A stretch of DNA of 12,765 nt from a virus (lineage: Duplodnaviria > Heunggongvirae > Uroviricota > Caudoviricetes). Position numbers and translations under genes: made by a program. The stretch covers positions 1 through 12,765 of IMG/VR virus record IMGVR_UViG_2634166457_000023, one strand, 5' to 3'. The notes under the pieces are model-generated. The model was given only the letters and a program-made list of their open reading frames with translations, had not been told where the DNA came from and did not search any database. Below, piece after piece: positions 1 through 12,765 of the stretch (position 1 is its first letter; every line of letters starts with the position of its first letter).

Positions 1-1119
1 TCAAATAACCAACTTAACCCATTCCTGACCTCGAGTATCGTTATAGCGATCGGTGGTTGCCTGGACTTTATGTCCTAGTAATGTTTTTGTATCGATACCC
101 TGTGCACGGTACAGCCGTTCTGATAGAGAGCGTTGTTCATGAAATGTTGGCGGAGTTTTTCCTGCTGGTGGAATTATCCCAGCCAGATCCCGTGCTTTGG
201 CAAAGTAGTCGCTCAGGTTGTCTTTACTCATCGGCTTTGGTTGTTTCTGGTGCCGACTATGGATTAGATATGGACTTAATATTCGGTCTCGGCACCCATC
301 AATAACTTCTTTTAACGTTATCCCAATGGCATCACAGCGTAGTGTAAGCGGTAACGCCAGACGCATTCCGGTTTTTCCCTGGGTGATATGCAAGTGTTCG
401 TTCCACACATCTGAAAAACGCATGTGGCAAATGTCATCACGGCGCTGACCAGTAACAATCGCAAGAAGCATTGCGTTACGGATAAAGTGTTTTTCAGGCG
501 TTGCGTTGTAAATTTTTTGCCAGTCTTCCAGGGGGAGCCTGGCTCTGGTTACTTTAGGGATCGGTTTACGGGTAGCCTCCGGAGGATTCCATCCAGGAGG
601 AACTTCCCCTGCATGCTGTGCTTCTTTATAAATATCAACCCATAATCCGCGATTTACTCTCGCTGTGCTGACCATGTCTTTATCCAGCCACTCATCCAGT
701 ATTAATGCAAAGTCTCTTACTTCCAGTTCTTTCAATGGGTGGTTTCCCAGACGGGAAACCAGGTATGCAGCCATTCGAGTTTTTTCTTTGTGAGTTGTAG
801 CTGCAATATCTCCATTTTTCAGTCGCGTGTCCTGTATTTTCAGATATCGATCAACCCATGCCTTTAATCTGATACCCCGACGTTTTGTTGCTGACGGACT
901 TTCATCAATTTTGCGCATGAAATATTCAGCTTCTGCTGCAGCTATTCGCTGATTGGCTGTGGAAGCGATTTTTTCTGCCTTACCTTTGTCTGTTCCGAGT
1001 CCGTGAAATTTTCCAGTCACAGGATTTTTATACTGGTAGTAAACTCTGCCAGTTCTGCGATCAAACTTTTCGTAAAGACCGGCTACGTCAGTGCTGTTTT
1101 TTCGTGGCCTCGGTGACAT
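1..1119 (-). CDS. int: Tyrosine recombinase, lambda-family integrase (372 aa, complete)
   Basis: Full ORF. N-terminal YYQYKNPVTGKFHGLG arm-binding-like segment; catalytic-domain motifs LLAIVTGQRRDDI, PPTFHEQRSLSERLY and LLGHK...TTDRY. These align by eye with lambda Int as I recall it. Confidence 0.9.
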   Translation of the reverse strand: MSPRPRKNSTDVAGLYEKFDRRTGRVYYQYKNPVTGKFHGLGTDKGKAEKIASTANQRIAAAEAEYFMRKIDESPSATKRRGIRLKAWVDRYLKIQDTRLKNGDIAATTHKEKTRMAAYLVSRLGNHPLKELEVRDFALILDEWLDKDMVSTARVNRGLWVDIYKEAQHAGEVPPGWNPPEATRKPIPKVTRARLPLEDWQKIYNATPEKHFIRNAMLLAIVTGQRRDDICHMRFSDVWNEHLHITQGKTGMRLALPLTLRCDAIGITLKEVIDGCRDRILSPYLIHSRHQKQPKPMSKDNLSDYFAKARDLAGIIPPAGKTPPTFHEQRSLSERLYRAQGIDTKTLLGHKVQATTDRYNDTRGQEWVKLVI

Positions 1120-1357
1120 GAGTTAAAATCTCCTTCAGTGTATCATCATCGCCAGTATGAATTTCCGGCGCAATTCCCGTTTCACCAGGTCCAACAAATA
1201 CTGCTCGGCGATCTATCAGCCAACGCCCACGAATTTTTTGTGGTCTTGGAACGATGTATCCTAGTTTTCCGTATTTCACCAGGGTAGTGTTTGTTATTGG
1301 GAGACTGAACCGTTTTGGCTTCCACTCATCGAGCGTTATCAGGTACTGTTCGCTCAT
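1088..1357 (-). CDS. xis: Excisionase-like protein (Xis), 89 aa
   Basis: Small ORF directly upstream of int, overlapping it by 32 bp as in lambda xis-int. ATG at 1357 preceded by GGAG at about 8 nt. Segment LITLDEWKPKRFSLP...RGRWLIDRRAV resembles the lambda Xis N-terminus. The track start at 1366 is a GTG 9 nt further upstream. Confidence 0.65.
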   Translation of the reverse strand: MSEQYLITLDEWKPKRFSLPITNTTLVKYGKLGYIVPRPQKIRGRWLIDRRAVFVGPGETGIAPEIHTGDDDTLKEILTHVTEATKKQH

Positions 1358-1375
1358 GGCTATCACTCCGGAACG

Positions 1376-1407
1376 CGCCAGTTGCAGAATACCAACGACA
1401 ACTGGCG
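1376..1407. other. Inverted repeat CGCCAGTTG / CAACTGGCG (9-bp arms, 14-nt loop) in the exo-xis intergenic spacer
   Basis: Perfect 9-bp inverted repeat read directly at 1376-1384 and 1399-1407. No U-run follows on either strand. Confidence 0.4.
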
Positions 1408-1418
1408 ACGGTTGAACA

Positions 1419-3815
1419 TTAAAAATCAGCCTGACTCGGGATCAGTTTTTGCCAGATAGCTGAAACGTATTTTGCCTGGTAACGAGCGTCATCAAGTGCA
1501 TTATGGCGCTCACCTTCGAATGGGATAGCCGTTCTGGCATCGAAGTCTATGGCTTTCCCCAGCTCAACGATTGTGCATACATCGCGATCGTTGTGGTAGT
1601 GCCAGGGGCAGGGGATACCCTGTCGTTCGTATGAACGGCGTAAAATCACGTTGTCGAAGTTGGCTCCATTTCCCCAGACCTGAACAAAAAATTCACCGGA
1701 GTTTTCGGCGATAAATTCACGCAATTGCAGTAGTGCATCATCTAACGGGATTTCATCGGTCAGAATGGCAGATTGCGCCTCGCGTGATTGCTTAAGCCAC
1801 CATTTAATGGTGTCACGATCAATGACTCCGCCAGCTGTTTCCAGATCGATGGTCTTACTAAATTCCGGTCCCATATCTCCGGTTTGCGGATCGAAAAATA
1901 TTGCACCTATTGAGATAATTGGGGCATCGGGATTTTTTCCCATCGTTTCAAGGTCGATCATCAGATGAATACCCGCTCTGCTGGTGGATGTACTTTCATG
2001 ATGACCGTTCACCTTAATTGGGTGATCTGCCGCCTCGCCAGTTTCATTATCGCTGGCGTGATACTGATCACCGCCAGCGTCCTCCTTATGAAGATGTTCA
2101 TTGCCTTCCATTTCCTCCGGATTTTTTTCCTGAGATTCAGCCTGATTTTCTCCATTGAATGTTTCCTGGTATGTTGTGTTGCCCATTACCGCACCACAAT
2201 CAGGGCAGCTACCCCCGCCAGCCTGACCGCAGGCGGTACAAACTTTTCCTTCTTCCGGTTCGCTGTTCTGATGCAGTTTTTCTTCTGTCTGCTGTTCATC
2301 ATTTTCCGTTTTTTTAACTTCATTTGAGGGGATGTGATGACCGGGAATCCATTTCGGATCATTCGGGTCGCTAATCCCTTCAACGAACTCACCACGTGAT
2401 GCTGCCAGTAATTTGTCCGCATCGATCGGAGTTTTGGGCGGAATGTTTTTTCTGGCTTCGTGGAGTTCTGCCCGCAGTTCCTGGTATTTCGCATCAACAG
2501 AATTTACCTGTGGCTGAGCATCTATCGACGGTGTGTCCTGATGATGTTCAGTTGCATCCGGTTCCACTGCTTCAGGCGTTGTCTGTTCATTTGCCATTGC
2601 GCCAGATGGTTGCAGTTTTTCTTCATCATCCTGTTTTCCTTCTTCTGTTACACGCTGCGGCATCGGGGCAGAGGATCGACCGCAGGCAATATCCACGATT
2701 TCCGGATCAGGGTTGGCATGATCGGTTTCAGTAAGTACCTTGTTCAGATATTCAGTGACATGCGCAGGGATGACCTCGATACCAATTGGTGCTTCTTTCA
2801 CGGATGCAACCACGATGGCGCGGGAATAATCCAGCCCGCCAGGCATGGTGATGAATTTGTCGCGGAAAACAGAAAAGGGCGGTTTATTTTCAGCGATAAT
2901 TTCCTCGACACGTTTAGCGTGTGCAGGATGAAGGTTATAGATGTCCACGTCCATTGAACGGGCCAGTACGCCAGTGGCTACGTCGCGTGCCAGTGATGCC
3001 TGATCGTGGATGAAACCGTCGCCGCGATCGGTAAGGTTCCCGCCGCCAGCATTAGCACCGGAAGCCGTGCGGGTGATACGCGAAACACGATTCCCTTTCA
3101 TCCACTCTTTTGTCAGCAGACCGCGATCGGTGTAGTCAGCGTCCAGGTATGCTTCGATAAAAGCGGTCATCATCCCAAAATCTGAATTTTTCGGATTAGG
3201 GAAAACTTTGTCAGTATCACGCACCAGTTTGTGGAGGTCGCGAATTTCCAGCGGGTCGAGCAGGCTGGTTTTGTGGGAAACAGCCAGGGCAGTAACTGCC
3301 GGTAGTTCTTCATCTCGTGCAATGTGTAATGTCTGGAGTTCGTCGCGTGAAACGTGCGTTACTGGTTTTTCGCTGCCGTGTTGAGCAAGCCAACGAATGG
3401 GCAGTTCCTGACCGGAAACAGGCAGGAGCATGCTCTCCTCAATCTCAGTCATGTCTTCGCCGTTGACGTTGGTATTGTCAGTGCTTGCTGGTTTGTCCTG
3501 AACAGAGGGGGAAGGGCCGATAAATGTCATTGTGATGCCATCTTTCCCGCCTTTTTCATAGCGGTTGCAGAATTCCGTATCAAACACGCCTTCTGGCGGG
3601 AGGTCATCAACAACGGGCAAATTGACGCGGACGGGTTTTTTAAAGTCGTCTTCATCATAATCGTTGTCATCCATTGCGGTAATGCAGCGGGAGATTGCAA
3701 CAGATAATTTTTTTGCTGTAGTCCAGTAAAAACCACCTTTAATTCCCAGGCGTTTTCTTACTTTGTCATTTTTTGCTTCGCAATATAGTGCAAATTCTTC
3801 TTTATCAGTGCTCAT
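1419..3815 (-). CDS. Exodeoxyribonuclease VIII-like protein (798 aa): RecE-like N-terminal region, acidic/Cys-containing linker, C-terminal DEDDh (DnaQ-like) 3'-5' exonuclease domain
   Basis: N-terminal approx 400 aa resemble the non-catalytic N-terminus of E. coli RecE from memory ([12 protein letters not shown]...[21 protein letters not shown]...). The C-terminal approx 190 aa (coords approx 1419-1990) carry DEDDh motifs: IDLETMG (Exo I), [12 protein letters not shown] (Exo II), [13 protein letters not shown] (Exo III). A CTAC...CPDC pair sits in the linker near 2195-2245. Confidence 0.85.
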
Positions 3816-3908
3816 TATTGATAAACCTCATCACAGATTTAAGGGTGAACAAATCTCTGCCATTGCTGACATATAAGAATGAAACTGGATGTTTATTACT
3901 GTGCTGTT

Positions 3909-4100
3909 TTAAAATCCTGCCGGGATTTCGTTATTATCCTGGTGAATAACTTTATCGACCGGATAACAGTTGCCTGGAATTTTCTGTTCGGTTGCTGCTG
4001 CCATACATTCCTGCATTGTTCTGTGAATACTGACTGCAATATCAACTGGCTCTCCGGAAACAAGAAAAATCGTCAGAATAAGTGCAAATACTGGATTCAT
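3909..4100 (-). CDS. ydfD: YdfD-like small membrane/lysis protein (63 aa)
   Basis: ATG at 4100 overlaps the upstream stop (ATGA). AAAGGA lies 8 nt upstream. N-terminal hydrophobic helix MNPVFALILTIFLVSG. Size and position after dicB match Qin ydfD from memory. Confidence 0.6.
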   Translation of the reverse strand: MNPVFALILTIFLVSGEPVDIAVSIHRTMQECMAAATEQKIPGNCYPVDKVIHQDNNEIPAGF

Positions 4101-4285
4101 TGTGCACATCCTTTTGGCATCAGACGTAAACGGGCCAGCATTGAAACAATGCATACTTTATTTAATAACTCCCGTTCGTGTTTTCTTTTGTTAATGGCCT
4201 CTTCAGTAAATACAGGATTACTGATAGTGACACCAATTTCAAAAAAACCTTCAGACGTATTAACGTTTGGTAATAACATTTTCAT
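4097..4285 (-). CDS. dicB: Cell-division inhibitor DicB (62 aa)
   Basis: Product MKMLLPNVNTSEGFFEIGVTISNPVFTEEAINKRKHERELLNKVCIVSMLARLRLMPKGCAQ closely matches my recollection of E. coli DicB. GAGGG lies 7 nt upstream of the ATG at 4285. Lies immediately downstream of the DicF-like sequence. Confidence 0.75.
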   Translation of the reverse strand: MKMLLPNVNTSEGFFEIGVTISNPVFTEEAINKRKHERELLNKVCIVSMLARLRLMPKGCAQ

Positions 4286-4454
4286 TATCGCGCCCTCAAC
4301 AATGAGTTTTGTGATGCGGTGCCTGGTGCCTCCAGGTGACGTTAACCAGTTAACAATTAACGCCGGATATAGAGAATCCACCCATAACACTGTTTTTGGT
4401 TTTAACTGTTCCGCGTGCGCTCAGCCGCATTCACCGCATCACAAAATTCACTTT

Positions 4455-4512
4455 AAAAAGGGCGGTAGAGCAGTCACGGAGTAAAACTGATACCGCCAAA
4501 CGTCACCAGAAA
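4455..4512 (-). ncRNA. dicF: DicF small RNA (antisense inhibitor of ftsZ translation), with 3' terminator-like hairpin and U-run
   Basis: Minus-strand sequence UUUCUGGUGACGUUUGGCGGUAUCAGUUUUACUCCGUGACUGCUCUACCGCCCUUUUU matches my memory of E. coli DicF almost base for base. It ends in a GGCGGUA...UACCGCC stem plus U5. Located upstream of dicB as in Qin. Confidence 0.75.
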
Positions 4513-4846
4513 ATTGATAACAGAGGGCGTTGCAGCGGGGTTGTCACTTAAGCGTATGGTCAACCTGACAACCCGGTGTCCTCAACGGGGAAGGAATAAC
4601 CCCGCCATACTTACCGCCGCGCCATTTCGCGGAGTGCCACAACCGGAAGCGCACGGTCGACGAAAATTTAACGACAGGCTGTCTATGAACCAGCTACCTC
4701 GCCGTGCGCTTTCGCGTTATGGTCTGACTTTTCAGGGAAATATCCTTTCAGTAAACTGTCAGTGCCGGATGCTCACCCGTGTCCGGCGCACGCACTCCAC
4801 CTCACCCGTGGAGAACTCCTTAATCACCAACCCTCAGGAGGGTGAA

Positions 4847-5122
4847 ATGTCGACTGAAAATGATGAAATCATTAACTCCCTGATACGCCAGATTAATAAT
4901 TTTGATAAAGCATTGCAGCATGCTGCGGCGCGTAGTGATATAACTCTTTTAGCAATTTCATTTCTTGCATCTGTTATGGATAAAAATGAAGTCGTACGAC
5001 AGAGTCTTGTTGATTATATCGACTCGCTTCAACCCGGCACTTTCAATCATGAGAGCTTCAATCATGAGAAAGAGCATGTTAAATCTGTAATTAATTCTCT
5101 TGTTTTGAATCAAAAGAATTAA
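4847..5122 (+). CDS. Hypothetical protein (91 aa), AT-rich cargo gene convergent with the leftward operon
   Basis: ATG at 4847 preceded by GGAGG with a 5-nt spacer. Product looks helical with an in-frame FNHES/FNHEK repeat. Marked drop in GC relative to flanks. The upstream part of track ORF 4514..5122 is Arg-rich and treated as non-coding. Confidence 0.5.
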   Translation: MSTENDEIINSLIRQINNFDKALQHAAARSDITLLAISFLASVMDKNEVVRQSLVDYIDSLQPGTFNHESFNHEKEHVKSVINSLVLNQKN

Positions 5123-5420
5123 TGCTTTTTGTTGCAAAGTAATTTTCAAGGGGGTCTATTCGAATCCCTTTCTTTTTCATTAACAAGCCAAACCCCTTAT
5201 CAATGATGTCCATTAATTCCAGGAAGTATTTTTCATGTAAATCCTGGTTATCAGAGAGCTGCTTCTCTTCGTACAGCCCGATAAAGGCACGACGCACGTT
5301 ACCGGATATAGTATCGATGGTTTCTTTTTCTACGGTACTAAGGTCAAGAGTCGCCAGTTGAGAACGAACTATATTCGATGCCATTTCTTGGAATGGTATT
5401 GGTAAATCTTTAAATTCCAT
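5091..5420 (-). CDS. Hypothetical protein (109 aa), AT-rich cargo gene in the leftward operon
   Basis: ATG at 5420 preceded by GAGG at 6 nt. Protein-like composition with no family recognised. Its 3' end overlaps the convergent gene at 4847-5122 by 32 bp. Confidence 0.55.
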   Translation of the reverse strand: MEFKDLPIPFQEMASNIVRSQLATLDLSTVEKETIDTISGNVRRAFIGLYEEKQLSDNQDLHEKYFLELMDIIDKGFGLLMKKKGIRIDPLENYFATKSINSFDSKQEN

Positions 5421-5455
5421 CGTCAACCTCATCAGTCAGTTATTCACTCGGATAC

Positions 5456-5662
5456 TTAACCATTCTGGCAACATTTAATGCCGCCGCTTCTGTCAGGCTG
5501 GCGATGCTCTGGTCCAGTTCGGCCATTTTTTTTGGCCTGTAGCGTCTTGGAATCATTGACCCATTTCAGGTCCTGCGCAGCCTTAACTTTTTGTTTCATC
5601 CACTCATAAATCTCATCATCGGTATAGCCTGGTGCGATGATGATGGGTTCTGGTTTCTGCAT
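5456..5662 (-). CDS. ydfC: YdfC-like small protein (68 aa as read); probably frame-disrupted at an A8 tract
   Basis: ATG at 5662 with GAGGAA RBS. After the homopolymer (plus T8 at 5526-5533) the read frame encodes low-complexity NGRTGPEHRQPDRSGG, while the neighbouring frame encodes helix-like MAELDQSIASLTEAAALNVARMVKYPSE ending at 5440. Position after ydfB matches Qin ydfC. Confidence 0.5.
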   Translation of the reverse strand: MQKPEPIIIAPGYTDDEIYEWMKQKVKAAQDLKWVNDSKTLQAKKNGRTGPEHRQPDRSGGIKCCQNG

Positions 5663-5691
5663 AATGATTCCTCGCGGTGCTGTTTCGCTTA

Positions 5692-5820
5692 TTAGCCGTT
5701 AGATTTTGCCGAACTGGAAAGCGCCTCTTTAAACTCACTAAAGCTGAGAGCGTCTTCGCCTTCGGCAAGGCCTTCGAAGTATTCTTCGTAAGCCTTTTCC
5801 ATGATTGCGTCGAAATCCAT
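5692..5820 (-). CDS. ydfB: YdfB-like small acidic protein (42 aa)
   Basis: ORF below the track threshold, found by hand: MDFDAIMEKAYEEYFEGLAEGEDALSFSEFKEALSSSAKSNG. Strong AGGTGA RBS. Lies between the YdfA-like and YdfC-like genes. The track ORF 5616..5825 is in a different frame. Confidence 0.55.
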   Translation of the reverse strand: MDFDAIMEKAYEEYFEGLAEGEDALSFSEFKEALSSSAKSNG

Positions 5821-5821
5821 A

Positions 5822-5977
5822 TCACTCACCTGAGTTTCTTTCCAGCCAGCGACGCGCGCCAGATTCGGTTTTAAACGTGGTGCTTTTGGTATACGTCATC
5901 GCGGTGAACGTACCGTCCTGGTTTGGGAACACGCCGCACACCAGAGATTCGTTGTTGCCAAGATCGATAGTATCCAT
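5822..5977 (-). CDS. ydfA: YdfA/YdaF-like small protein (51 aa, DUF1391-like)
   Basis: Hand-found ORF MDTIDLGNNESLVCGVFPNQDGTFTAMTYTKSTTFKTESGARRWLERNSGE. GAGG RBS 7 nt upstream. First gene downstream of the PL-like promoter. Family assignment is from memory. Confidence 0.6.
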   Translation of the reverse strand: MDTIDLGNNESLVCGVFPNQDGTFTAMTYTKSTTFKTESGARRWLERNSGE

Positions 5978-6149
5978 GCTGACCTCATTTCCCCTTAACG
6001 CCGGGGTAGCGGAACAAAAACCTGCTGCATAGTTAAAAGTTGAACCCCGCCGTCACTTTCGAATGCCTCGGGCTGGCTACATTGACCCCTGACCACTGCC
6101 TGGTAACTCGAAGTATTGCCCGGCGTTCTGTGGGGCGGGGTGGGTTGGT

Positions 6150-6200
6150 ATCTTTAGTTTAATAAACATTAAACTTAAGTCAAGCAAAAACTAAACCGCG
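6150..6200 (-). promoter_or_regulatory. OL/PL-like operator-promoter for the leftward early operon
   Basis: Minus-strand -35 TTGACT (plus 6178-6183) flanked by half-sites TTTAGT (6153-6158) and ACTAAA (6190-6195). The 11-mer GTTTAATAAAC is the exact reverse complement of GTTTATTAAAC in the OR region. Confidence 0.5.
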
Positions 6201-6214
6201 GGGCGTAACAAACA

Positions 6215-6237
6215 CAACGCTTTTGATAAAGTCGTTG
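6215..6237 (-). terminator. Weak terminator-like hairpin (CAACG...CGTTG) downstream of the toxin gene
   Basis: 5-bp inverted repeat 6215-6219 / 6233-6237 with a 13-nt loop, followed on the minus strand by UGUUUGUU. Sits between the toxin stop (6268) and the PL region. Confidence 0.25.
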
Positions 6238-6267
6238 CGGTTGTTATGTTTCTATTGGTAGTGAAAG

Positions 6268-6546
6268 TTAGGGAAACTGGCGTCTTGCGTGGATCACGTT
6301 TACTACTTCAACGCTTGATGTTGTTACGCGGTATAGAATTATATAGTTAGGGTGGGCCACAATCTCACGCAAGCCAGGTACTCTGTCGCTTGGTGGGTAT
6401 AAATACGGATGTTCGGATAATGGCAGCACACAACCCCTTAATCGCTGCCATAAGCGTTCAGCCGCATCTATGTCGAAACGAGCAATATAACTAGTTATAT
6501 CATCTAGGTCGGTATCTGCGCTTTCAAGCCATAACACGGGTAACAT
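6268..6546 (-). CDS. parE: ParE-family toxin (92 aa), ParE2-like, of a three-gene repressor-antitoxin-toxin operon
   Basis: C-terminal LREIVAHPNYIILYRV...VEVVNVIHARRQFP is typical of ParE/RelE-fold toxins. ATG at 6546 lies 1 nt after the antitoxin stop. The track start at 6642 is rejected. Confidence 0.8.
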   Translation of the reverse strand: MLPVLWLESADTDLDDITSYIARFDIDAAERLWQRLRGCVLPLSEHPYLYPPSDRVPGLREIVAHPNYIILYRVTTSSVEVVNVIHARRQFP

Positions 6547-6547
6547 T

Positions 6548-6739
6548 TTACTGCTTGCTCCGTTCCTTCCGCATTTTAGCAAAGCGTTCTGCCATTCTGC
6601 GCTCAACTTCGTCATGGGGAATTGCTGGGCGCGGATCTGCAAGGCTCGTTGCTACTTTCGCACGCAGCCATTCGTTGTAACTGTTTTCTTGTTCAATGGT
6701 TTCAAATTCAGAAACCATTGGTGAAAGGGCTCTATTCAT
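6548..6739 (-). CDS. Small antitoxin (63 aa), PaaA-like partner of the ParE toxin
   Basis: ATG at 6739 preceded by GGAGGA at 5 nt. Size and position match the PaaA-type antitoxins of paaR-paaA-parE operons described in E. coli O157 prophages (from memory). Starts 20 nt after the repressor stop. Confidence 0.65.
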   Translation of the reverse strand: MNRALSPMVSEFETIEQENSYNEWLRAKVATSLADPRPAIPHDEVERRMAERFAKMRKERSKQ

Positions 6740-6759
6740 GTTTCCTCCGGTTTTATAAC

Positions 6760-7131
6760 TCAGGCGCGGCGGCATTTTTGCGCCGCAATCCATCTCGCTA
6801 TGAGATCTTCCATTGATTCTTTTTTCTGCTTTAACTCGTTGATTATCTGGCGTTGCTCATCCTCAGGGAAGGCTGAAAAAATCTGCAATAATTCCAGTTG
6901 ATTAGACGTTAACCCTGCATGTGGTGGAGAAACCTCCGGTTGTTCTGCGTATTCCGCATCCAGATACCCTTCCGGCATCCCGTATGTTTGCTCTATTCTT
7001 CTGGCAGCCTTTTCTCCAAACGAGGCTCTCCCACTCATTAGTTGAGATAGGTAGCTCTTCTCTTTGGGTGGCAGAGTTTTATCTTTAAACCACTCCTTGA
7101 GACGTAAACGGCGAATTTCTTTTTTTTGCAT
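6760..7131 (-). CDS. HTH (XRE-type) prophage repressor, CI/DicA-like, lacking a peptidase S24 domain (123 aa); possibly also the PaaR-type regulator
   Basis: N-terminal HTH KEKSYLSQLMSGRASFGEKAARRIEQTYGMP. C-terminal LTSNQLELLQIFSAFPEDEQ resembles DicA as I recall it. Divergent from the cro-like gene. ATG at 7131 has no SD but sits 6 nt after a GATAAT -10, so likely leaderless like lambda cI. The track GTG start at 7194 is rejected. Confidence 0.75.
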   Translation of the reverse strand: MQKKEIRRLRLKEWFKDKTLPPKEKSYLSQLMSGRASFGEKAARRIEQTYGMPEGYLDAEYAEQPEVSPPHAGLTSNQLELLQIFSAFPEDEQRQIINELKQKKESMEDLIARWIAAQKCRRA

Positions 7132-7137
7132 GTGGTA

Positions 7138-7220
7138 ATTATCTTTAGTAATCACTAAACAAGCAAATACTTGACTTAATGGTTTATTAAACACTAAACT
7201 CGCAAAAAAACACTAAACCG
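7138..7220. promoter_or_regulatory. OR-like region with back-to-back divergent promoters (PRM-like leftward, PR-like rightward) and three ACTAAA operator half-site positions
   Basis: Palindrome TTTAGTaatcACTAAA at 7144-7159 sits in the spacer of the PRM-like promoter (-35 TTGCTT as plus 7161-7166, -10 GATAAT as plus 7138-7143). PR-like -35 TTGACT at 7171-7176 with -10 near 7194-7200. ACTAAA recurs at 7193-7198 and 7212-7217. Confidence 0.55.
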
Positions 7221-7228
7221 AGGAAGGT

Positions 7229-7531
7229 ATGACATTAAAAGAGTTTATTAAATCATTGAGGGTTGGTGATGCTAAGAAATTCGCGGCCAGACTAGGTGTA
7301 TCGCCATCTTACTTATCGCAAATGGCGTCTGGACGAGCAGCTATATCTCCAACCCGCGCCCTTATGATCGAATCTGCGACGGAAGGCCAAGTAAGTAGGG
7401 CGGAGCTACGACCCCATGATTGGGAGCTTATTTGGCCTGAGTATGCGAGCGGCATTCGTTTGGGGCAAACGCATGTAGTTCATGCTGAAGGTGATTGTAG
7501 AGCATGCTTATCTGATGGAGTTGATTCATGA
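7229..7531 (+). CDS. ydaS: Cro-like HTH protein, YdaS family (100 aa)
   Basis: GAGGAAGG RBS. HTH AKKFAARLGVSPSYLSQMASG and ELRPHDWELIWPE motif typical of YdaS-type proteins. First gene of the rightward operon. Confidence 0.75.
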   Translation: MTLKEFIKSLRVGDAKKFAARLGVSPSYLSQMASGRAAISPTRALMIESATEGQVSRAELRPHDWELIWPEYASGIRLGQTHVVHAEGDCRACLSDGVDS

Positions 7532-7953
7532 AAATCAAGCATGAACACATCCGCATGGCGATGAATGCCTGGGCGCATCCTGATGGCGAAAAAGTACCGG
7601 CTGCGAAAATTACCAAAGCGTATTTCGAACTGGGAATGACGTTCCCGGAACTGTATGACGACAGCCATCCCGAAGCCCTGGCTCGCAATACCCAGAAAAT
7701 TTTCCGCTGGGTAGAGAAAGATACCCCTGATGCTGTTGAAAAAATTCAGGCGTTGTTACCTGCGATCGAAAAGGCAATGCCGCCTCTGCTGGTGGCCCGA
7801 ATGCGCAGTCACAGTTCAGCCTATTTTCGGGAACTGCTGGAGACGCGGGAGCGGCTGGTGAGGGATGCAGATGATTTTATTGCGGTGGCAATTACTGGTT
7901 TCAACCAGATTAATCGCGGTGGCCCGGCAGGAAATGCCGTGGTGATGCACTAA
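7528..7953 (+). CDS. ydaT: YdaT-family protein (141 aa), CII-like position
   Basis: ATGA overlap with the ydaS-like stop. Size and position match Rac YdaT. Family assignment is from memory. Confidence 0.7.
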   Translation: MKIKHEHIRMAMNAWAHPDGEKVPAAKITKAYFELGMTFPELYDDSHPEALARNTQKIFRWVEKDTPDAVEKIQALLPAIEKAMPPLLVARMRSHSSAYFRELLETRERLVRDADDFIAVAITGFNQINRGGPAGNAVVMH

Positions 7954-7976
7954 AAGCACGGTGTTCGGGGTTTTTT

Positions 7977-8909
7977 ATGAGCAGCAAGCTTCATGGTCTT
8001 GTCTGGGAAGGGTGCGCCTTCACCGGCATGATCTTATCCAGGGTGGCAGTGATGGCTCGTCTTGCAGACTACAGCAATGATGAAGGTGTGTCATGGCCTG
8101 CAGTAGAGACCATTCGTCGTCAGATTGGGGCAAAGAGTGAATCAACGGTTAAAGCGGCGATAGCGGAACTGGAAAAGAGCGGCTGGCTGACAAAGGAAGA
8201 GCGTAAGGTTGGTGGACGTAACGTAAGCAATATCTACCGGCTTAATGTGGAAAAACTCGAAGCTGCAGCAGCGGCAGCGCGAGAGGCATATAAACCGAAA
8301 AGAAAAATTAGCCCGGCAAAAAATGACCCGTTAACGGTTGACCCGTCAAATTTTGATGGATCAACCGTTGATAAAAAACGGTCGGTTAGGGGGGCGATGA
8401 TTGACCCCGATCCGTCAGTATTAAAATCTGATCCGTCAGATAAAAGATCTTCTTGTCCGGACGCTTCGCAACCGGACCCGCAGACGGCTGAACAGGATTT
8501 TTTAACCCGACACCCTGACGCGGTTGTGTTCAGTGCGAAAAAACGCCAGTGGGGAAGTCAGGAAGATTTGGCGTGCGCACAGTGGATCTGGGGACGAATC
8601 GTGAGTCTTTACGAGCAGGCAGCCAGCGATGATGGCGAGATCACTCGACCGAAAGAACCAAACTGGACCGCGTGGGCCAATGACGTGCGCACAATGCGGA
8701 TGCTGGATGGCAGAACTCACAGACAAATTTGCGAAATGTTTGGGCGGGTACAGCGGGATCCATTCTGGGTAAAAAACATCATGAGCCCGTCAAAGCTCCG
8801 CGAAAAATGGGACGAACTGGTCATCCGCCTGGGGCGTTCGCCTGTACAGCGTTGTGTGAATCACATTTCTGAACCGGACACCGAAATTCCACCGGGCTTC
8901 AGGGGGTAA
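7977..8909 (+). CDS. Phage replication initiation protein (310 aa): N-terminal HTH, repeat-rich middle, C-terminal DnaT-like region
   Basis: N-terminal VSWPAVETIRRQIGAKSESTVKAAIAELEKSGWL is typical of phage replication-initiator HTH domains. The middle encodes DP/DPS peptide repeats over DNA iterons. Lies in the lambda O position. Confidence 0.7.
   Translation: MSSKLHGLVWEGCAFTGMILSRVAVMARLADYSNDEGVSWPAVETIRRQIGAKSESTVKAAIAELEKSGWLTKEERKVGGRNVSNIYRLNVEKLEAAAAAAREAYKPKRKISPAKNDPLTVDPSNFDGSTVDKKRSVRGAMIDPDPSVLKSDPSDKRSSCPDASQPDPQTAEQDFLTRHPDAVVFSAKKRQWGSQEDLACAQWIWGRIVSLYEQAASDDGEITRPKEPNWTAWANDVRTMRMLDGRTHRQICEMFGRVQRDPFWVKNIMSPSKLREKWDELVIRLGRSPVQRCVNHISEPDTEIPPGFRG
8325..8442. repeat. Iteron-like repeats and palindromes inside the replication gene (putative origin of replication)
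   Basis: Four copies of GAYCCGTYAR (8325-8337, 8340-8350, 8409-8420, 8430-8440). Palindromes CCGTTAACGG, TTGACCCGTCAA and ATCTGATCCGTCAGAT. A-rich tract just upstream at 8291-8324. Confidence 0.4.
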
Positions 8910-8949
8910 GTGTTTATTTCAGGTCATGAGGTAATTTTCAGGAGGACTT

Positions 8950-9369
8950 GTGGCAAAAGTTTTTACACAAGAAGAGCGGGAAAAAATTAAAGGGCAGGTT
9001 GTTGAACTCGTACGCCAGAGTGGGCGCGAGACGTTACGACAACTGGAAGCTAAAACCGGGGCAACAAGATATCTGATGAGCGTTCTGGCCAGAGAACTGG
9101 TTGCCAGTGGCGATGTATACAACTCCGGCTACGGGTTATTCCCGTCTGAACAGGCTCGTAAGGACTGGCAAAACGCCCGCAAAAAACTCTCGAGGGCAAA
9201 GCTGAAGAAACCATCTGTGGTTGATCCGGACCTTATCTGGTCATTACCAGACGGAGAGATACGTCGCTATGACAGACGTCTGAACATAATCTGTCGCGAG
9301 TGCCGGAAGAGTGAGGTTATGCAGCGAGTTTTGGTGTTTTACAGGGGTAATAACGGATCAACGATATGA
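8950..9369 (+). CDS. Hypothetical protein (139 aa), possible winged-helix N-terminus
   Basis: GTG start at 8950 with GGAGG 4 nt upstream. The stop overlaps the next start (ATGA). No family recognised. Confidence 0.55.
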   Translation: MAKVFTQEEREKIKGQVVELVRQSGRETLRQLEAKTGATRYLMSVLARELVASGDVYNSGYGLFPSEQARKDWQNARKKLSRAKLKKPSVVDPDLIWSLPDGEIRRYDRRLNIICRECRKSEVMQRVLVFYRGNNGSTI

Positions 9370-9659
9370 GGGTTTATATTGCAGGGCTGATGACCGGGTA
9401 TAAAAATTTCAACCGTGAGGCATTTCACAAGGCGGAAGAGGAGCTGAAGCGGGAAGGGTATACAGTCTTAAACCCGGCAGTACTTCCGGACGGGCTGACA
9501 CAGCCACACTACATGGATATCTGCATGGCAATGATTCGTTGTGTGGATGCGATTTACATGCTGAAAGGTTGGCAGCGGTCAGCAGGCGCTAAGGCAGAGC
9601 TGGCACTGGCGGAGAAGCTGGGGCATGCAGTTATTTTTCAGGAGGTAATCAGTGAGTGA
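9366..9659 (+). CDS. DUF4406-family protein (97 aa), nucleoside 2-deoxyribosyltransferase-like fold
   Basis: MRVYIAGLMTGYKNFNREAFHKAEEELKREGYTVLNPA...DAIYMLKGWQRSAGAKAELALAEKLG matches the DUF4406 pattern from memory. Confidence 0.75.
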   Translation: MRVYIAGLMTGYKNFNREAFHKAEEELKREGYTVLNPAVLPDGLTQPHYMDICMAMIRCVDAIYMLKGWQRSAGAKAELALAEKLGHAVIFQEVISE

Positions 9660-10069
9660 AATTAATTACCAGGCACTGCGTGTTGCAGGCATTTGCATCA
9701 AAGGAGAGTGACGTGGAAATAAAACCAGAAGATGAGTTAAGTAATATTGTTTTATTTCCTGTAAAAGAGGATGACCCGCGTAATCAGGTTAATTTTCTTT
9801 ATGAGCCATCGGAAAGACCATATTGCCATCACGCTTCTGTCCGGGTTGATGAAAAAGAGCGTCAGGTCCGATGCAAAATCTGCGGTGCGGTTGTGGAGCC
9901 ATTTGACTGGATGCTCTCTGTGGCGAAAAGAGAAACCAGACTGGCAGATGATGTAAGGCTCTTGCGCCAGGAGGAACGGGAAAGGCGGAAAAATATAGAA
10001 AAGTTAATTCAGATTGAGCGTAACGCGAAAGCGCGGATACGCAGGGCGACAAAATCCAGAACTGAATAA
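9656..10069 (+). CDS. Hypothetical Cys/His-containing protein with basic coiled-coil C-terminus (137 aa from GTG 9656; 118 aa if from GTG 9713)
   Basis: CHH...CKIC motif then a Arg/Glu-rich helical tail. GTG 9656 overlaps the upstream stop (GTGA), with GGAGG 10 nt upstream. Alternative GTG 9713 has AAGGAG at 6 nt. Confidence 0.55.
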   Translation: MKLITRHCVLQAFASKESDVEIKPEDELSNIVLFPVKEDDPRNQVNFLYEPSERPYCHHASVRVDEKERQVRCKICGAVVEPFDWMLSVAKRETRLADDVRLLRQEERERRKNIEKLIQIERNAKARIRRATKSRTE

Positions 10070-10161
10070 TTAAATTTAGTAGTGTTAAAAATTTAATCCT
10101 TAACCGGAGGGATTTCTGTACCCTCAGAACATCAGGAGGCAGCCCGAAAGGGCGGTAAGAA

Positions 10162-10380
10162 ATGGCTACATTATTCAGAAAAGAATATCTGCGAAGAAGC
10201 AGGGCTATAGAACTCTTGTTTCTCATTCTGTTTATCGTGTTGATGATACCGATATCCCCGTTAATTCTGGTATGGGGAATTGGGAAAATAATTGAGCCAG
10301 TTATTGAATTGTATACCGACGTTGTATGGGCGTCGTTCAACACACTGCACAACAAAATCAACCCATATAAGGAAAGCTGA
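10162..10380 (+). CDS. Small membrane protein (72 aa), one predicted transmembrane helix
   Basis: Hydrophobic stretch LLFLILFIVLMIPISPLILVWGIG. The next gene starts 1 nt after its stop. RBS region is structured (see hairpin finding). Confidence 0.5.
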   Translation: MATLFRKEYLRRSRAIELLFLILFIVLMIPISPLILVWGIGKIIEPVIELYTDVVWASFNTLHNKINPYKES

Positions 10381-10381
10381 T

Positions 10382-10747
10382 ATGGCACTGACGAAAAAAC
10401 AACGCGCAGAACTGCGCATGAAGTTCGGTGGTCGCTGCGCTTATTGCGGCTGCGAACTTGGCGAAAAGTGGCATGCAGACCATGTCAAACCGGTCATTCG
10501 TTTTGATGGAAATATGCTTCACCAGGAACGTGACGATATATCCAACATGGTTCCGGCATGCCACCCATGCAATCTGCACAAGCATTGCAGTAGCCTGGAA
10601 GATTATCGGCGAATTATCAGTGATGGTCGTCGTGAATTCCTTGCGTCCGGGAAAGGCAAAGCGCTGGTTCGTATGGGATTGGTTGAAATGAAATCTGACC
10701 CGGTTGTGTTCTGGTTTGAAAAATATCAAGAAGGGGCTACAGCATGA
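10382..10747 (+). CDS. HNH endonuclease (121 aa)
   Basis: [20 protein letters not shown] ... [10 protein letters not shown]: Cys pairs around an H-N-H core. AAGGAAA RBS. The track start at 10292 is rejected as a non-coding extension. Confidence 0.8.
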
Positions 10748-11091
10748 CCACTTTTACCAGAGAGCAGTTAATAGCTCACGCAGAGGAGACTATTGAAGCA
10801 CAGAGACTGTGCATACCGGGCACAATCGACCATGACATCATCCGCACATATAAGATGGATATTGCTGTTCTGGAAATCGCACTGGCATCGCTGGCAGCAG
10901 AGCCAGCCGGTAAATTGCATGAATACAAACCAGTGGGATATCAGCGTCTGGTCGATGAGTTAACCATGCTGGTAAAGCAGTTAACCTGGCAACTGAGGAA
11001 AGCGAAGTCAGACTGCAAATTACCGGATAAGGCGATGAGTTATCTGGAGCGGAACGGACTGATAAGCGTGGAAGATGATATTTTACGATGA
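10744..11091 (+). CDS. Hypothetical phage protein (115 aa)
   Basis: ATGA overlap with the HNH stop. Protein-like composition with no family recognised. Confidence 0.55.
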
Positions 11092-11171
11092 CCTGGCCTG
11101 AGGCATTCACAACGGTAGGAATTGCAATGGCGGTGGCGCTGGTGGTGTATTCGATTTGCCGCTGGGGATAA
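11088..11171 (+). CDS. Possible tiny hydrophobic peptide (27 aa)
   Basis: [31 protein letters not shown] overlap with the upstream stop. Ends just before a terminator-like hairpin. Below normal gene-calling thresholds. Confidence 0.3.
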
Positions 11172-11181
11172 ATCGCCGAAA

Positions 11182-11215
11182 AAAGATCCCGACACAAACA
11201 TGAGCCGGGATCTTT
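11182..11215. terminator. Bidirectional terminator-like hairpin between convergent transcription units
   Basis: 10-bp perfect inverted repeat AAAGATCCCG / CGGGATCTTT with a 14-nt loop. T/A-rich flanks give a U-run on either strand. Lies between the rightward operon end (11171) and the convergent ParE gene end (11296). Confidence 0.45.
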
Positions 11216-11295
11216 GATTTATATAGCCTACGAATCCGCCAGTAAGAGAGGGGGCGGACGGTTTATTCTAACACCGGAATGATGTGGGTAAAAGT

Positions 11296-11595
11296 TTATA
11301 AGAAATCGGTTTCATAACTTTGCCCACCATGATAGATACCGACAATAAAGACTTTTCTGCCATCAACGGCAAAAGCAATAATCGTTCTGTGGCGGAAATG
11401 AGTTACCCGCATCCCCTGGCGAATATCATCGCGTTTATTGCCCCGATGCGGGAATGTAGAAAACCCATCAAGATAATCAAGAAGCGCATTGGCATAATTG
11501 TCAGCAATGACGTTCCCTGCTTTCTCCGTTATATATCTGTGCAGGTTGATTATTTGTTGTTCGGCCTCAGGAGTAATGATGACTTCATATGTCAT
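11296..11595 (-). CDS. parE: ParE/RelE-family toxin (99 aa)
   Basis: Size, composition and position (start 5 nt after the stop of a ribbon-helix-helix antitoxin) are typical of ParE. C-terminal RKVFIVGIYHGGQ-type strand motif. Confidence 0.8.
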   Translation of the reverse strand: MTYEVIITPEAEQQIINLHRYITEKAGNVIADNYANALLDYLDGFSTFPHRGNKRDDIRQGMRVTHFRHRTIIAFAVDGRKVFIVGIYHGGQSYETDFL

Positions 11596-11600
11596 GCAGA

Positions 11601-11858
11601 TTACTTCCCGGATCGAATCGCGGCGCGAACCTGTGAAATGGAGCGTCCGTTGTTTGGATTTTCACGGATAGAATCAAGAGAGGGGGCGGCTGAATGCGTT
11701 AACCACGCTTCGATTGCTTTATCGCGCTCATTCAGTGCGCGAAGCCCTTCACGAATGACCTCGCTTTCTGAAGCATAGGCACCGGAAGCCACACGGGCGC
11801 GCACCATGTCAGCCATCTCGTTAGTTAATGTAATGCTGAATTGTTGGGTTGTACGCAT
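11601..11858 (-). CDS. parD: ParD-family antitoxin, ribbon-helix-helix (85 aa)
   Basis: FSITLTNEMADMVRARVASGAYASESEVIREGLRAL is a classic ParD/RHH signature. ATG at 11858 with GTGAGG RBS. The track start at 11921 is rejected. Confidence 0.8.
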   Translation of the reverse strand: MRTTQQFSITLTNEMADMVRARVASGAYASESEVIREGLRALNERDKAIEAWLTHSAAPSLDSIRENPNNGRSISQVRAAIRSGK

Positions 11859-11886
11859 GGTAAACCTCACGGAGTAGGATAGAACA

Positions 11887-11924
11887 CTATTCGATGATAG
11901 CACGCTGCCTGTTGACGACAACAG
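11887..11924 (-). promoter_or_regulatory. Putative parDE promoter with palindromic operator
   Basis: Minus-strand -35 TTGTCG (plus 11916-11921), 16-nt spacer, -10 TATCAT (plus 11894-11899). The 16-bp palindrome CTGTTGacgaCAACAG (11909-11924) overlaps the -35. Confidence 0.4.
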
Positions 11925-11993
11925 AAATCAGAGACAATATTGCCGCACGCCAGCCTGAACAACTGGCACCTGCTGCGCCAGCAGAGAAAACAG

Positions 11994-12272
11994 ATGGCGC
12001 ACAAGACCAAATTACACAATTCTGATAATTCAGCCGCCTTTGCCAGCAGGCACGGGCGGCGTTCTCATGCATTCAAATATGACTGGTACCAGCATGACCC
12101 ATGCACTGAAGAACAGGCAGAGTGGCTGATTCAGAACTACCGCAGACGTGGTTACGAGTTTCAGAAAGACCTCAGTCTTGACTTCCGACACTGGATAATT
12201 TCAGTCAGGCTCCCTTATTCCGAACGCCCACCGCGTCCGTCCCGCACATTCCAGCAACGGATCTGGAGGTAA
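11994..12272 (+). CDS. Hypothetical protein (92 aa from ATG 11994)
   Basis: ORF with a weak RBS. The track start at 11940 is a TTG. Its stop is followed by GGAGG and the next ORF start. No family recognised. Confidence 0.4.
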   Translation: MAHKTKLHNSDNSAAFASRHGRRSHAFKYDWYQHDPCTEEQAEWLIQNYRRRGYEFQKDLSLDFRHWIISVRLPYSERPPRPSRTFQQRIWR

Positions 12273-12273
12273 C

Positions 12274-12765
12274 GTGCGGGTATTGCTTCGACCTGTTCTG
12301 GTACCGGAACTCGGGCTGGTGGTCCTTAAGCCGGGCCGTGAGTCCATGCAGGTATTTCATAATCACCGGGTGCTGGTGGAGTCAGAACCGAAAAGCATGC
12401 TCGGTCTGCCGTCCGGAGTCGTCCCTGCCGTTCGCCAGCCGCTGGCGGAGGATAAATCATTACTGCCATTTTTCAGCAATGAGCGTGTGATTCGTGCTGC
12501 TGGCGGCGCTGGCGCACTGTCTGACTGGCTCTTGCGTCATGTTAAATCCTGCCAGTGGCCTCATGGTGATTATCACCACAGCGAAACCGTCATACATCGT
12601 TACGGTACCGGCGCGATGGTGTTGTGCTGGCACTGCGACAACCAGCTGCGTGACCAGACATCCGAATCACTCGGGCAACTTGCTCATCAAAACCTGTCAG
12701 CATGGATGATTGACGTCATACGCTATGCAATGAATGGCACACAGGAGCGTGAATTATCGCTGGCT
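12274..12765 (+). CDS. Hypothetical Cys/His-rich phage protein, 3'-truncated by the window edge (possibly DUF968-like)
   Basis: Frame open from GTG 12274 (GGAGG 4 nt upstream) to the window end. Alternative ATG at 12346. Motifs CQWPHGDYHH and CWHCDNQ suggest metal binding. Family guess is low confidence. Confidence 0.5.
   Translation, partial: MRVLLRPVLVPELGLVVLKPGRESMQVFHNHRVLVESEPKSMLGLPSGVVPAVRQPLAEDKSLLPFFSNERVIRAAGGAGALSDWLLRHVKSCQWPHGDYHHSETVIHRYGTGAMVLCWHCDNQLRDQTSESLGQLAHQNLSAWMIDVIRYAMNGTQERELSLA

Follow-up and report, generated by a model that had tools for sequence, protein, structure and literature searches.

A predicted paaR2-paaA2-parE2 toxin-antitoxin module within the immunity region of an Escherichia coli lambdoid prophage related to CP-933P

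In phage lambda, the repressor gene cI heads a leftward operon in which two passenger genes, rexA and rexB, follow between the operators OL and OR, with divergent Cro-like and CII-like genes on the other side; the repressor mRNA is leaderless and the switch is bistable. All of these traits recur in the prophage CP-933P, in which a toxin-antitoxin pair, paaA2-parE2, has explicitly been described as replacing rexA and rexB (PMC9986795, Prolic-Kalinsek 2023). Here, we analyse a locus of this type at positions 6268-7131 of a 12,765-nt stretch of tailed-phage DNA (IMG/VR record IMGVR_UViG_2634166457_000023, positions 1 to 12,765; referred to as the window), which is identical to a contig (KQ241478.1) of an E. 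coli strain with a draft genome (GCA_001186315.2). We suggest that this locus represents a copy of the paaR2-paaA2-parE2 (RAE2) operon, carried by a lambdoid prophage similar to CP-933P, in which the PaaR2 repressor is expressed together with an addiction pair.

For CP-933P, which is described as cryptic (PMC8630535, PMC9986795), PaaR2 is a CI analogue that is translated from a leaderless mRNA, with N-terminal sequencing giving a start at MQKKE (PMC8630535, Jurenas 2021). In the same study, PaaR2 and YdaS footprint on a 97-bp region over PRM and PR; the promoter PL933P has the same hexamers as PR, is accompanied by OL operators beyond the operon and is repressed by both proteins; YdaT activates a PRE-like promoter; and the PaaR2/YdaS switch is bistable, with ParE2 being released by neither of its transcriptional states. 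The locus stabilises an unstable mini-F plasmid and, hence, is addictive, and a function as a guard against recombination of the immunity cassette has been proposed in print (PMC8630535). Hallez 2010, as cited in PMC8630535, described the three genes as an operon, its repression by PaaR2 and the induction of the SOS response by ParE2, and PaaA2 as an unstable protein degraded by ClpAP and ClpXP. The module is, therefore, already known together with its structures and regulatory logic, and all interpretive points considered here have been published for CP-933P except phage exclusion.

The locus in the window encodes the same three proteins. In a PDB search, ParE2 (parE2, 6268-6546, minus strand; 92 aa) has the sequence of the O157:H7 protein ParE2 from E. 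coli (5cw7_B/5cze; 100% identity), and it matches the Pfam family ParE_toxin (PF05016, E 1.9e-16). The antitoxin PaaA2 (paaA2, 6548-6739, minus strand; 63 aa), which is without a DNA-binding domain, is identical over residues 2-63 to PDB 3zbe_A/5cw7, the tagged construct in the PDB beginning at residue 2; in Pfam, it matches PaaA2 (PF21217, E 1e-19), and ParD_antitoxin is not the family matched. PaaR2 (paaR2, 6760-7131, minus strand; 123 aa, starting with MQKKE) belongs to the helix-turn-helix (HTH) repressors, and its residues 1-65 are identical to the crystallised N-terminal DNA-binding domain deposited as 'Phage repressor protein CI' (7nkv_A/8c3k). PaaR2 has no Pfam family at E <= 0.01 and, thus, no S24 autocleavage domain, and the peptidase motif is stated to be absent from it (PMC8630535); therefore, PaaR2 is not directly RecA/SOS-inducible. 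The initial annotation of the locus, made from the nucleotide sequence, had proposed a CI/DicA-like repressor, a 63-aa antitoxin to be aligned to PaaA2 and a 92-aa ParE-family toxin, with sizes and order as in the paaR-paaA-parE modules of E. coli O157:H7 prophages, and the protein identities bear this out in full. Judged by these identities, the locus is assigned as the RAE2 three-component toxin-antitoxin module. Exact matches to PaaA2 and to ParE2 are found on at least 1000 contigs each, and the exact 123-aa PaaR2 sequence is rare (3 contigs). At residue 98, PaaR2 has Asn here and Ser in six other variants, including that of the Escherichia phage Evi; this private S98N substitution falls in the C-terminal domain, outside the part covered by the PDB structures.

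The span 6268-7131 runs exactly from the stop codon of parE2 to the start codon of paaR2 and holds three minus-strand genes (open reading frame list and sequence), with the PaaR-type regulator gene first in the same-strand cluster and the PaaA-type antitoxin gene directly upstream of that of the toxin. The intergenic gaps are 20 nt between paaR2 and paaA2 (6740-6759) and 1 nt between paaA2 and parE2 (6547), so that the initial annotation, which had placed the pair immediately downstream of the repressor with these gaps, was exact to the base. Its further statement that Shine-Dalgarno sequences are in place holds for the pair. Read from the sequence, paaA2 has a strong site (GGAGGA, 4 nt 5' of the ATG) and parE2 a weaker one (GGAG only, 11 nt upstream), whereas paaR2 has none, which agrees with its published leaderless translation. 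Because the paaA2 stop codon is 1 nt before the parE2 ATG, parE2 is likely translationally coupled to paaA2. A promoter scan gave no promoter-like site on the minus strand between 6740 and 7131.

Downstream, between the parE2 stop codon and the PL-like promoter described below, the minus strand can form a hairpin (6205-6245) with a predicted folding energy of -19.8 kcal/mol (z -3.6; 0 of 200 shuffled sequences fold as well). It is without a canonical U-run, and a terminator scan calls no canonical terminator after parE2; the hairpin may terminate the repressor operon or serve as a site of processing. No Rfam family was found in or beside the operon, either at gathering thresholds in a search of the whole window or at E <= 1 over 5900-7300. 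A structured nut-like or small RNA element in the G+C-rich PL leader (5975-6150, minus strand) was considered and dropped, as this segment is no more stably folded than its shuffled versions (z +0.67).

The operators and promoters around the three genes also follow the CP-933P arrangement. The gap between paaR2 and ydaS (7132-7228) is 97 bp, the same length as published for CP-933P, and forms the OR region with four operator repeats spaced by ~19-20 bp (7143-7160, ~7162-7180, 7182-7199 and 7201-7218), in which two families of direct repeats (D1 and D2) make up the operator-like units. The sequence CACTAAAC is present in three exact copies in the 12.7-kb window, all of them within 7153-7218, with ~0.4 copies expected window-wide by simple arithmetic. 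The promoter scan detects a PR-like promoter for ydaS-ydaT (7171-7200, plus strand; TTGACT/18/TAAACT) that corresponds to PR933P as mapped by 5' RACE (PMC8630535). On the opposite strand, a PRM-like promoter (7138-7166; -35 TTGCTT, 17 nt, -10 GATAAT) was read from the sequence and scores below the threshold of the promoter scan. Its start would fall on the A of the paaR2 ATG (7131), which is consistent with CP-933P because the published transcription start coincides with the translation start (PMC8630535). On the other side of the operon, a PL-like promoter (6183 to 6156, minus strand; TTGACT/16/TAAACT), likewise detected by the scan, has hexamers identical to those of PR and is overlapped by OL-like operators (6152-6196; inverted repeats I1, I3 and I7 plus direct repeat family D1); in particular, 24 nt of the PR promoter/operator (7169-7192) recur as an inverted copy at 6157-6180, just beyond parE2. 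Because these operator and promoter copies flank the operon at 7132-7228 and at 6152-6196, paaR2-paaA2-parE2 lies between OR-like and OL-like sites.

The divergent genes complete this picture. ydaS (7229-7531, plus strand; 100 aa) encodes a Cro analogue that is 98% identical to PDB 8c7k, deposited as 'Phage antirepressor protein Cro', and matches YdaS_toxin and HTH_3 in Pfam. ydaT (7528-7953, plus strand; 141 aa) encodes a CII analogue that matches PDB 3c4r (E 7e-88) and 8bt1 as well as Pfam YdaT_toxin. Where ydaS and ydaT meet, within the PRE region, the YdaT operator OM (7521-7538, TTGATTCATGAAAATCAA) is an exact match to the motif TTGATTN6AATCAA and the only exact one in the window; both motif and position have been published (PMC9986795). 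With divergent genes, operators, an OL/PL region and a CII-type activator with its site all present, the region is a lambdoid CI/Cro/CII-type immunity region. From the 97-bp length, the motif descriptions and the ~99% identity to many E. coli copies, we infer that the operators are the same as those footprinted in CP-933P.

Based on these data, we consider it very likely that the locus is the RAE2 operon and that it forms part of the immunity region of a lambdoid prophage resembling CP-933P, and nothing within the window contradicts this explanation. The gene structure, sequence identities, operators, promoters, synteny and distribution were computed here; for DNA binding, leaderless translation, co-transcription, bistability, toxicity, the Clp-dependent turnover of PaaA2 and the stabilisation of plasmids, the model relies on published work with proteins that are identical or nearly so. 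In this model, the CI-type repressor PaaR2 would be made from a leaderless PRM transcript and bind both the operator repeats of the 97-bp OR region and the second set at OL. PaaR2 would repress PR (ydaS-ydaT) and PL, which would drive the ydfA-dicB-dicF-exonuclease operon, and would autoregulate PRM. YdaS would compete with PaaR2 for the same operators, giving rise to a bistable switch, and YdaT would activate the PRE-like promoter at the ydaS/ydaT junction with more leftward transcription as a result. paaA2 and parE2 would be co-expressed as part of the repressor transcript, at the place of rexA-rexB in lambda. The labile PaaA2 would neutralise ParE2, a DNA-damaging, SOS-inducing toxin; upon loss of the locus, PaaA2 would not be resupplied, ParE2 would be freed and the cell would die. 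By virtue of this killing, the pair would act as an addiction module and keep both the immunity region and the prophage stable. Expression tied to the switch does not mean that the toxin is activated by the switch because a change of transcriptional state leaves ParE2 unreleased. The remaining proposals of the initial annotation agree with what is published for CP-933P or was found here: the three genes do lie between OR-like and OL-like operators, with the inverted PL/OL copy in place; their position is the one of lambda cI-rexA-rexB, as stated in print (PMC9986795); a repressor that doubles as toxin-antitoxin regulator, with expression tied to the lysogeny switch, matches the bistable PaaR2/YdaS switch; and a role in prophage maintenance matches the addiction seen in plasmid stabilisation (both PMC8630535).

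Several observations weigh against this explanation. ParE2 is reported not to bind GyrA59. The biological role beyond plasmid stabilisation is called open by the authors who reported it (PMC8630535). The studied proteins differ from those of this copy at 2 residues in YdaS and at ~10 in YdaT and, because PaaR2 carries the private S98N substitution, regulation in this copy is inferred. Finally, among complete E. coli genomes, the best one covers 81% of the window at 95% identity, and the window is, therefore, not CP-933P itself. Compared to the RAE2 module of CP-933P/Sp12, the copy in the window has the same genes, order, sizes and spacing, the same 97-bp OR, the PL/OL copy, the divergent ydaS-ydaT genes and the YdaT operator; however, it resides in a different mosaic prophage of another E. 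coli strain, with a different set of replication genes and a second, ParD/ParE pair. The window is a mosaic relative of CP-933P.

The module itself is widespread. Its architecture is shared by 595-633 of the 5426 complete E. coli genomes (roughly 11%); the 1-kb module is found in 633 of these genomes overall, and at >= 99% identity in 578 records. Escherichia phage Evi (LR597642.1), a temperate coliphage isolated from infant faecal samples, has the module at ~99% identity. The ParE2 of Evi is 100% identical by tblastn (locus 6167-6445, minus strand) and is unannotated in the GenBank record; therefore, the immunity-region toxin of a live phage is invisible in its annotation.

The location of the pair, which follows the repressor in the rexAB slot between OL and OR, together with the presence of the module in the live, isolated temperate phage Evi, raises the alternative that paaA2-parE2 is mainly a Rex-like exclusion or abortive infection device. 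The pair would be expressed from PRM in the lysogen; an infecting phage would shut off host transcription or degrade PaaA2, thereby releasing ParE2 and causing the infection to abort, and the instability of PaaA2, as a substrate of ClpAP and ClpXP, would suit such a mechanism. Compared to lambda, there is no sequence homology to CI, RexA or RexB, and Pfam gives the pair only ParE_toxin and PaaA2; there are four operator repeats rather than three; CI has an S24 autocleavage domain, whereas PaaR2 has none; and the passengers are a toxin-antitoxin addiction pair and not a known exclusion system. Besides the absence of homology to RexA and RexB, the following speaks against exclusion: PADLOC has no defence model that matches either toxin-antitoxin pair of the window, with only a sub-threshold hit for PaaR2 (E 0.006), ParE2 is activated in neither transcriptional state of the switch (PMC8630535), and we found no paper that reports exclusion by the module and nothing relevant in the literature on PaaR2 in connection with phage defence or superinfection. 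('PAAR2' in a paper on a Burkholderia prophage refers to a type VI secretion cluster and is irrelevant here.) Thus, exclusion as the main function of the pair seems unlikely to us; it is compatible with, and does not exclude, the addiction role. In a related version, to which we give a similarly small chance, paaA2-parE2 would act in inducible phages such as Evi as a rexAB-like guard of the immunity region: a heteroimmune superinfecting phage that shuts off PRM/PRE transcription, or a recombination event that swaps the immunity cassette, would release ParE2, which would kill the cell and exclude the competitor.

A second alternative is that PaaR2 is a dedicated toxin-antitoxin regulator, i.e. 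the split-off DNA-binding domain of the antitoxin, rather than an immunity repressor, and that the likeness to lambda is coincidental. PaaA2 does lack a DNA-binding domain while PaaR2 represses the operon, and the 'split antitoxin' idea was raised by the authors of the CP-933P study themselves (PMC8630535). By contrast, PaaR2 operators are also located at PR and at the distant PL, which drives genes other than the toxin-antitoxin genes, and comparisons with related loci show the repressor and the pair apart from each other. Klebsiella phage 5 LV-2017 has a homologue of PaaR2, with 45% identity, in the cI position opposite ydaS-like and cII-like genes, and neither ParE nor PaaA follows it. Among phages with the same flanks, vB_EcoM-606R7 has a 214-aa cI plus cro in the same place and another related locus a 158-aa repressor, both without a toxin-antitoxin pair. 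Conversely, plasmids of the Pseudomonas syringae group carry a ParE (72% identical) with an equally short, 61-aa antitoxin annotated as 'stability determinant' (70% identical to PaaA2) in the same order, with the genes overlapping or abutting; these pairs are without a PaaR-type repressor and outside a phage immunity region. On pPsv48C (NC_019292.2, 1616-2094), the PaaA2-like + ParE pair is directly after repA and a gene of the HU family. The finding that repressor and pair each occur without the other supports an insertion of the pair, as cargo, into the operon of the immunity region. Taken together, these comparisons argue that PaaR2 is primarily an immunity repressor and the pair stabilisation cargo in its operon, and they suggest that a short antitoxin without a DNA-binding domain is older than its insertion into the prophage. 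The split-antitoxin idea is, thus, largely refuted already, and we regard it as very improbable.

The addiction pair in the RAE2 operon shares the ParE fold, the Pfam family and the stabilisation/addiction role with canonical ParD-ParE systems (RK2, Caulobacter 3kxe, Vibrio ParDE2). However, PaaA2 is not a ribbon-helix-helix ParD protein, the antitoxin does not autoregulate, and ParE2 is the one reported not to bind GyrA59. Another related system is the paaR1-paaA1-parE1 module of CP-933M in E. coli O157:H7, which has the same order (ydaT, ydaS / repressor, antitoxin, ParE / ydfA, ydfB ... dicB) with a ParE that is 67% and a PaaA that is ~70% identical. Its repressor is 42% identical to PaaR2 over residues 28-123, and the residues before 28 do not align. 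A repressor of the paaR1 type (132-133 aa; EDL933 NZ_CP124741.1, 1881-2788) keeps the C-terminal domain of PaaR2 (...ELLQ.F.AFPE.DQ...KDKK..ME..I.RW.AA.K..RA), and its N-terminal HTH region is much less conserved. This divergence of the HTH region would suggest a different immunity specificity, so that the paaR1 and PaaR2 types may be heteroimmune repressors with an oligomerisation domain in common. In the database, NZ_CP124741.1 is labelled as a 287-kb 'plasmid' of EDL933, yet has prophage and chromosomal-type genes.

That the copy in the window is merely an inert remnant of a decayed prophage, without current regulatory or toxic activity, would fit the description of CP-933P as cryptic and the position of the window at the end of a draft contig, which does not allow prophage completeness to be judged, but is hardly credible given three intact open reading frames with a toxin and an antitoxin identical to experimentally active proteins, intact operators, PR, PL and YdaT site, and integrase, excisionase and replication genes that are intact in the window.

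Other genes of the prophage add to the context of the operon. In the PL transcription unit, the antisense small RNA DicF is present at full length (4460-4511, minus strand; Rfam RF00039, 74.1 bits, with the gathering score at 48) and is the only Rfam family found over the whole window. Downstream of it follow a homologue of dicB (~4097-4285, minus strand; Pfam DicB) and a DUF1482 gene. Together, they make up a Qin-like dicBF division-inhibition operon, which is presumably controlled by PaaR2. Between the replication genes and the late genes, a second toxin-antitoxin pair is encoded on the minus strand (11296-11595 and 11601-11858/11921). It is of the canonical type, with a 99-aa ParE_toxin protein (E 3e-10), for which no PDB relative was found at E <= 0.001, and a ParD_antitoxin protein (E 2e-7). 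One prophage, thus, harbours two ParE-family toxins predicted to be paired with different types of antitoxin. Further cargo in the window includes an HNH endonuclease and a DUF4406 protein among 10292-10747 and 9366-9659 (both plus strand) and a 798-aa protein (1419-3815, minus strand) that fuses the N-terminal region of Exonuclease VIII to an Rv2179c-like 3'-5' exoribonuclease domain.

As a discovery, the locus carries little weight because the module has been published along with its structures and the logic of its regulation, and the observations on modularity are modest additions to the published picture rather than a new system. What they do place in view is that the module extends beyond the cryptic CP-933P to an isolated temperate coliphage. 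Thus, the effect of a toxin-antitoxin pair in the immunity region on a working lysis-lysogeny switch could be studied in a live phage.

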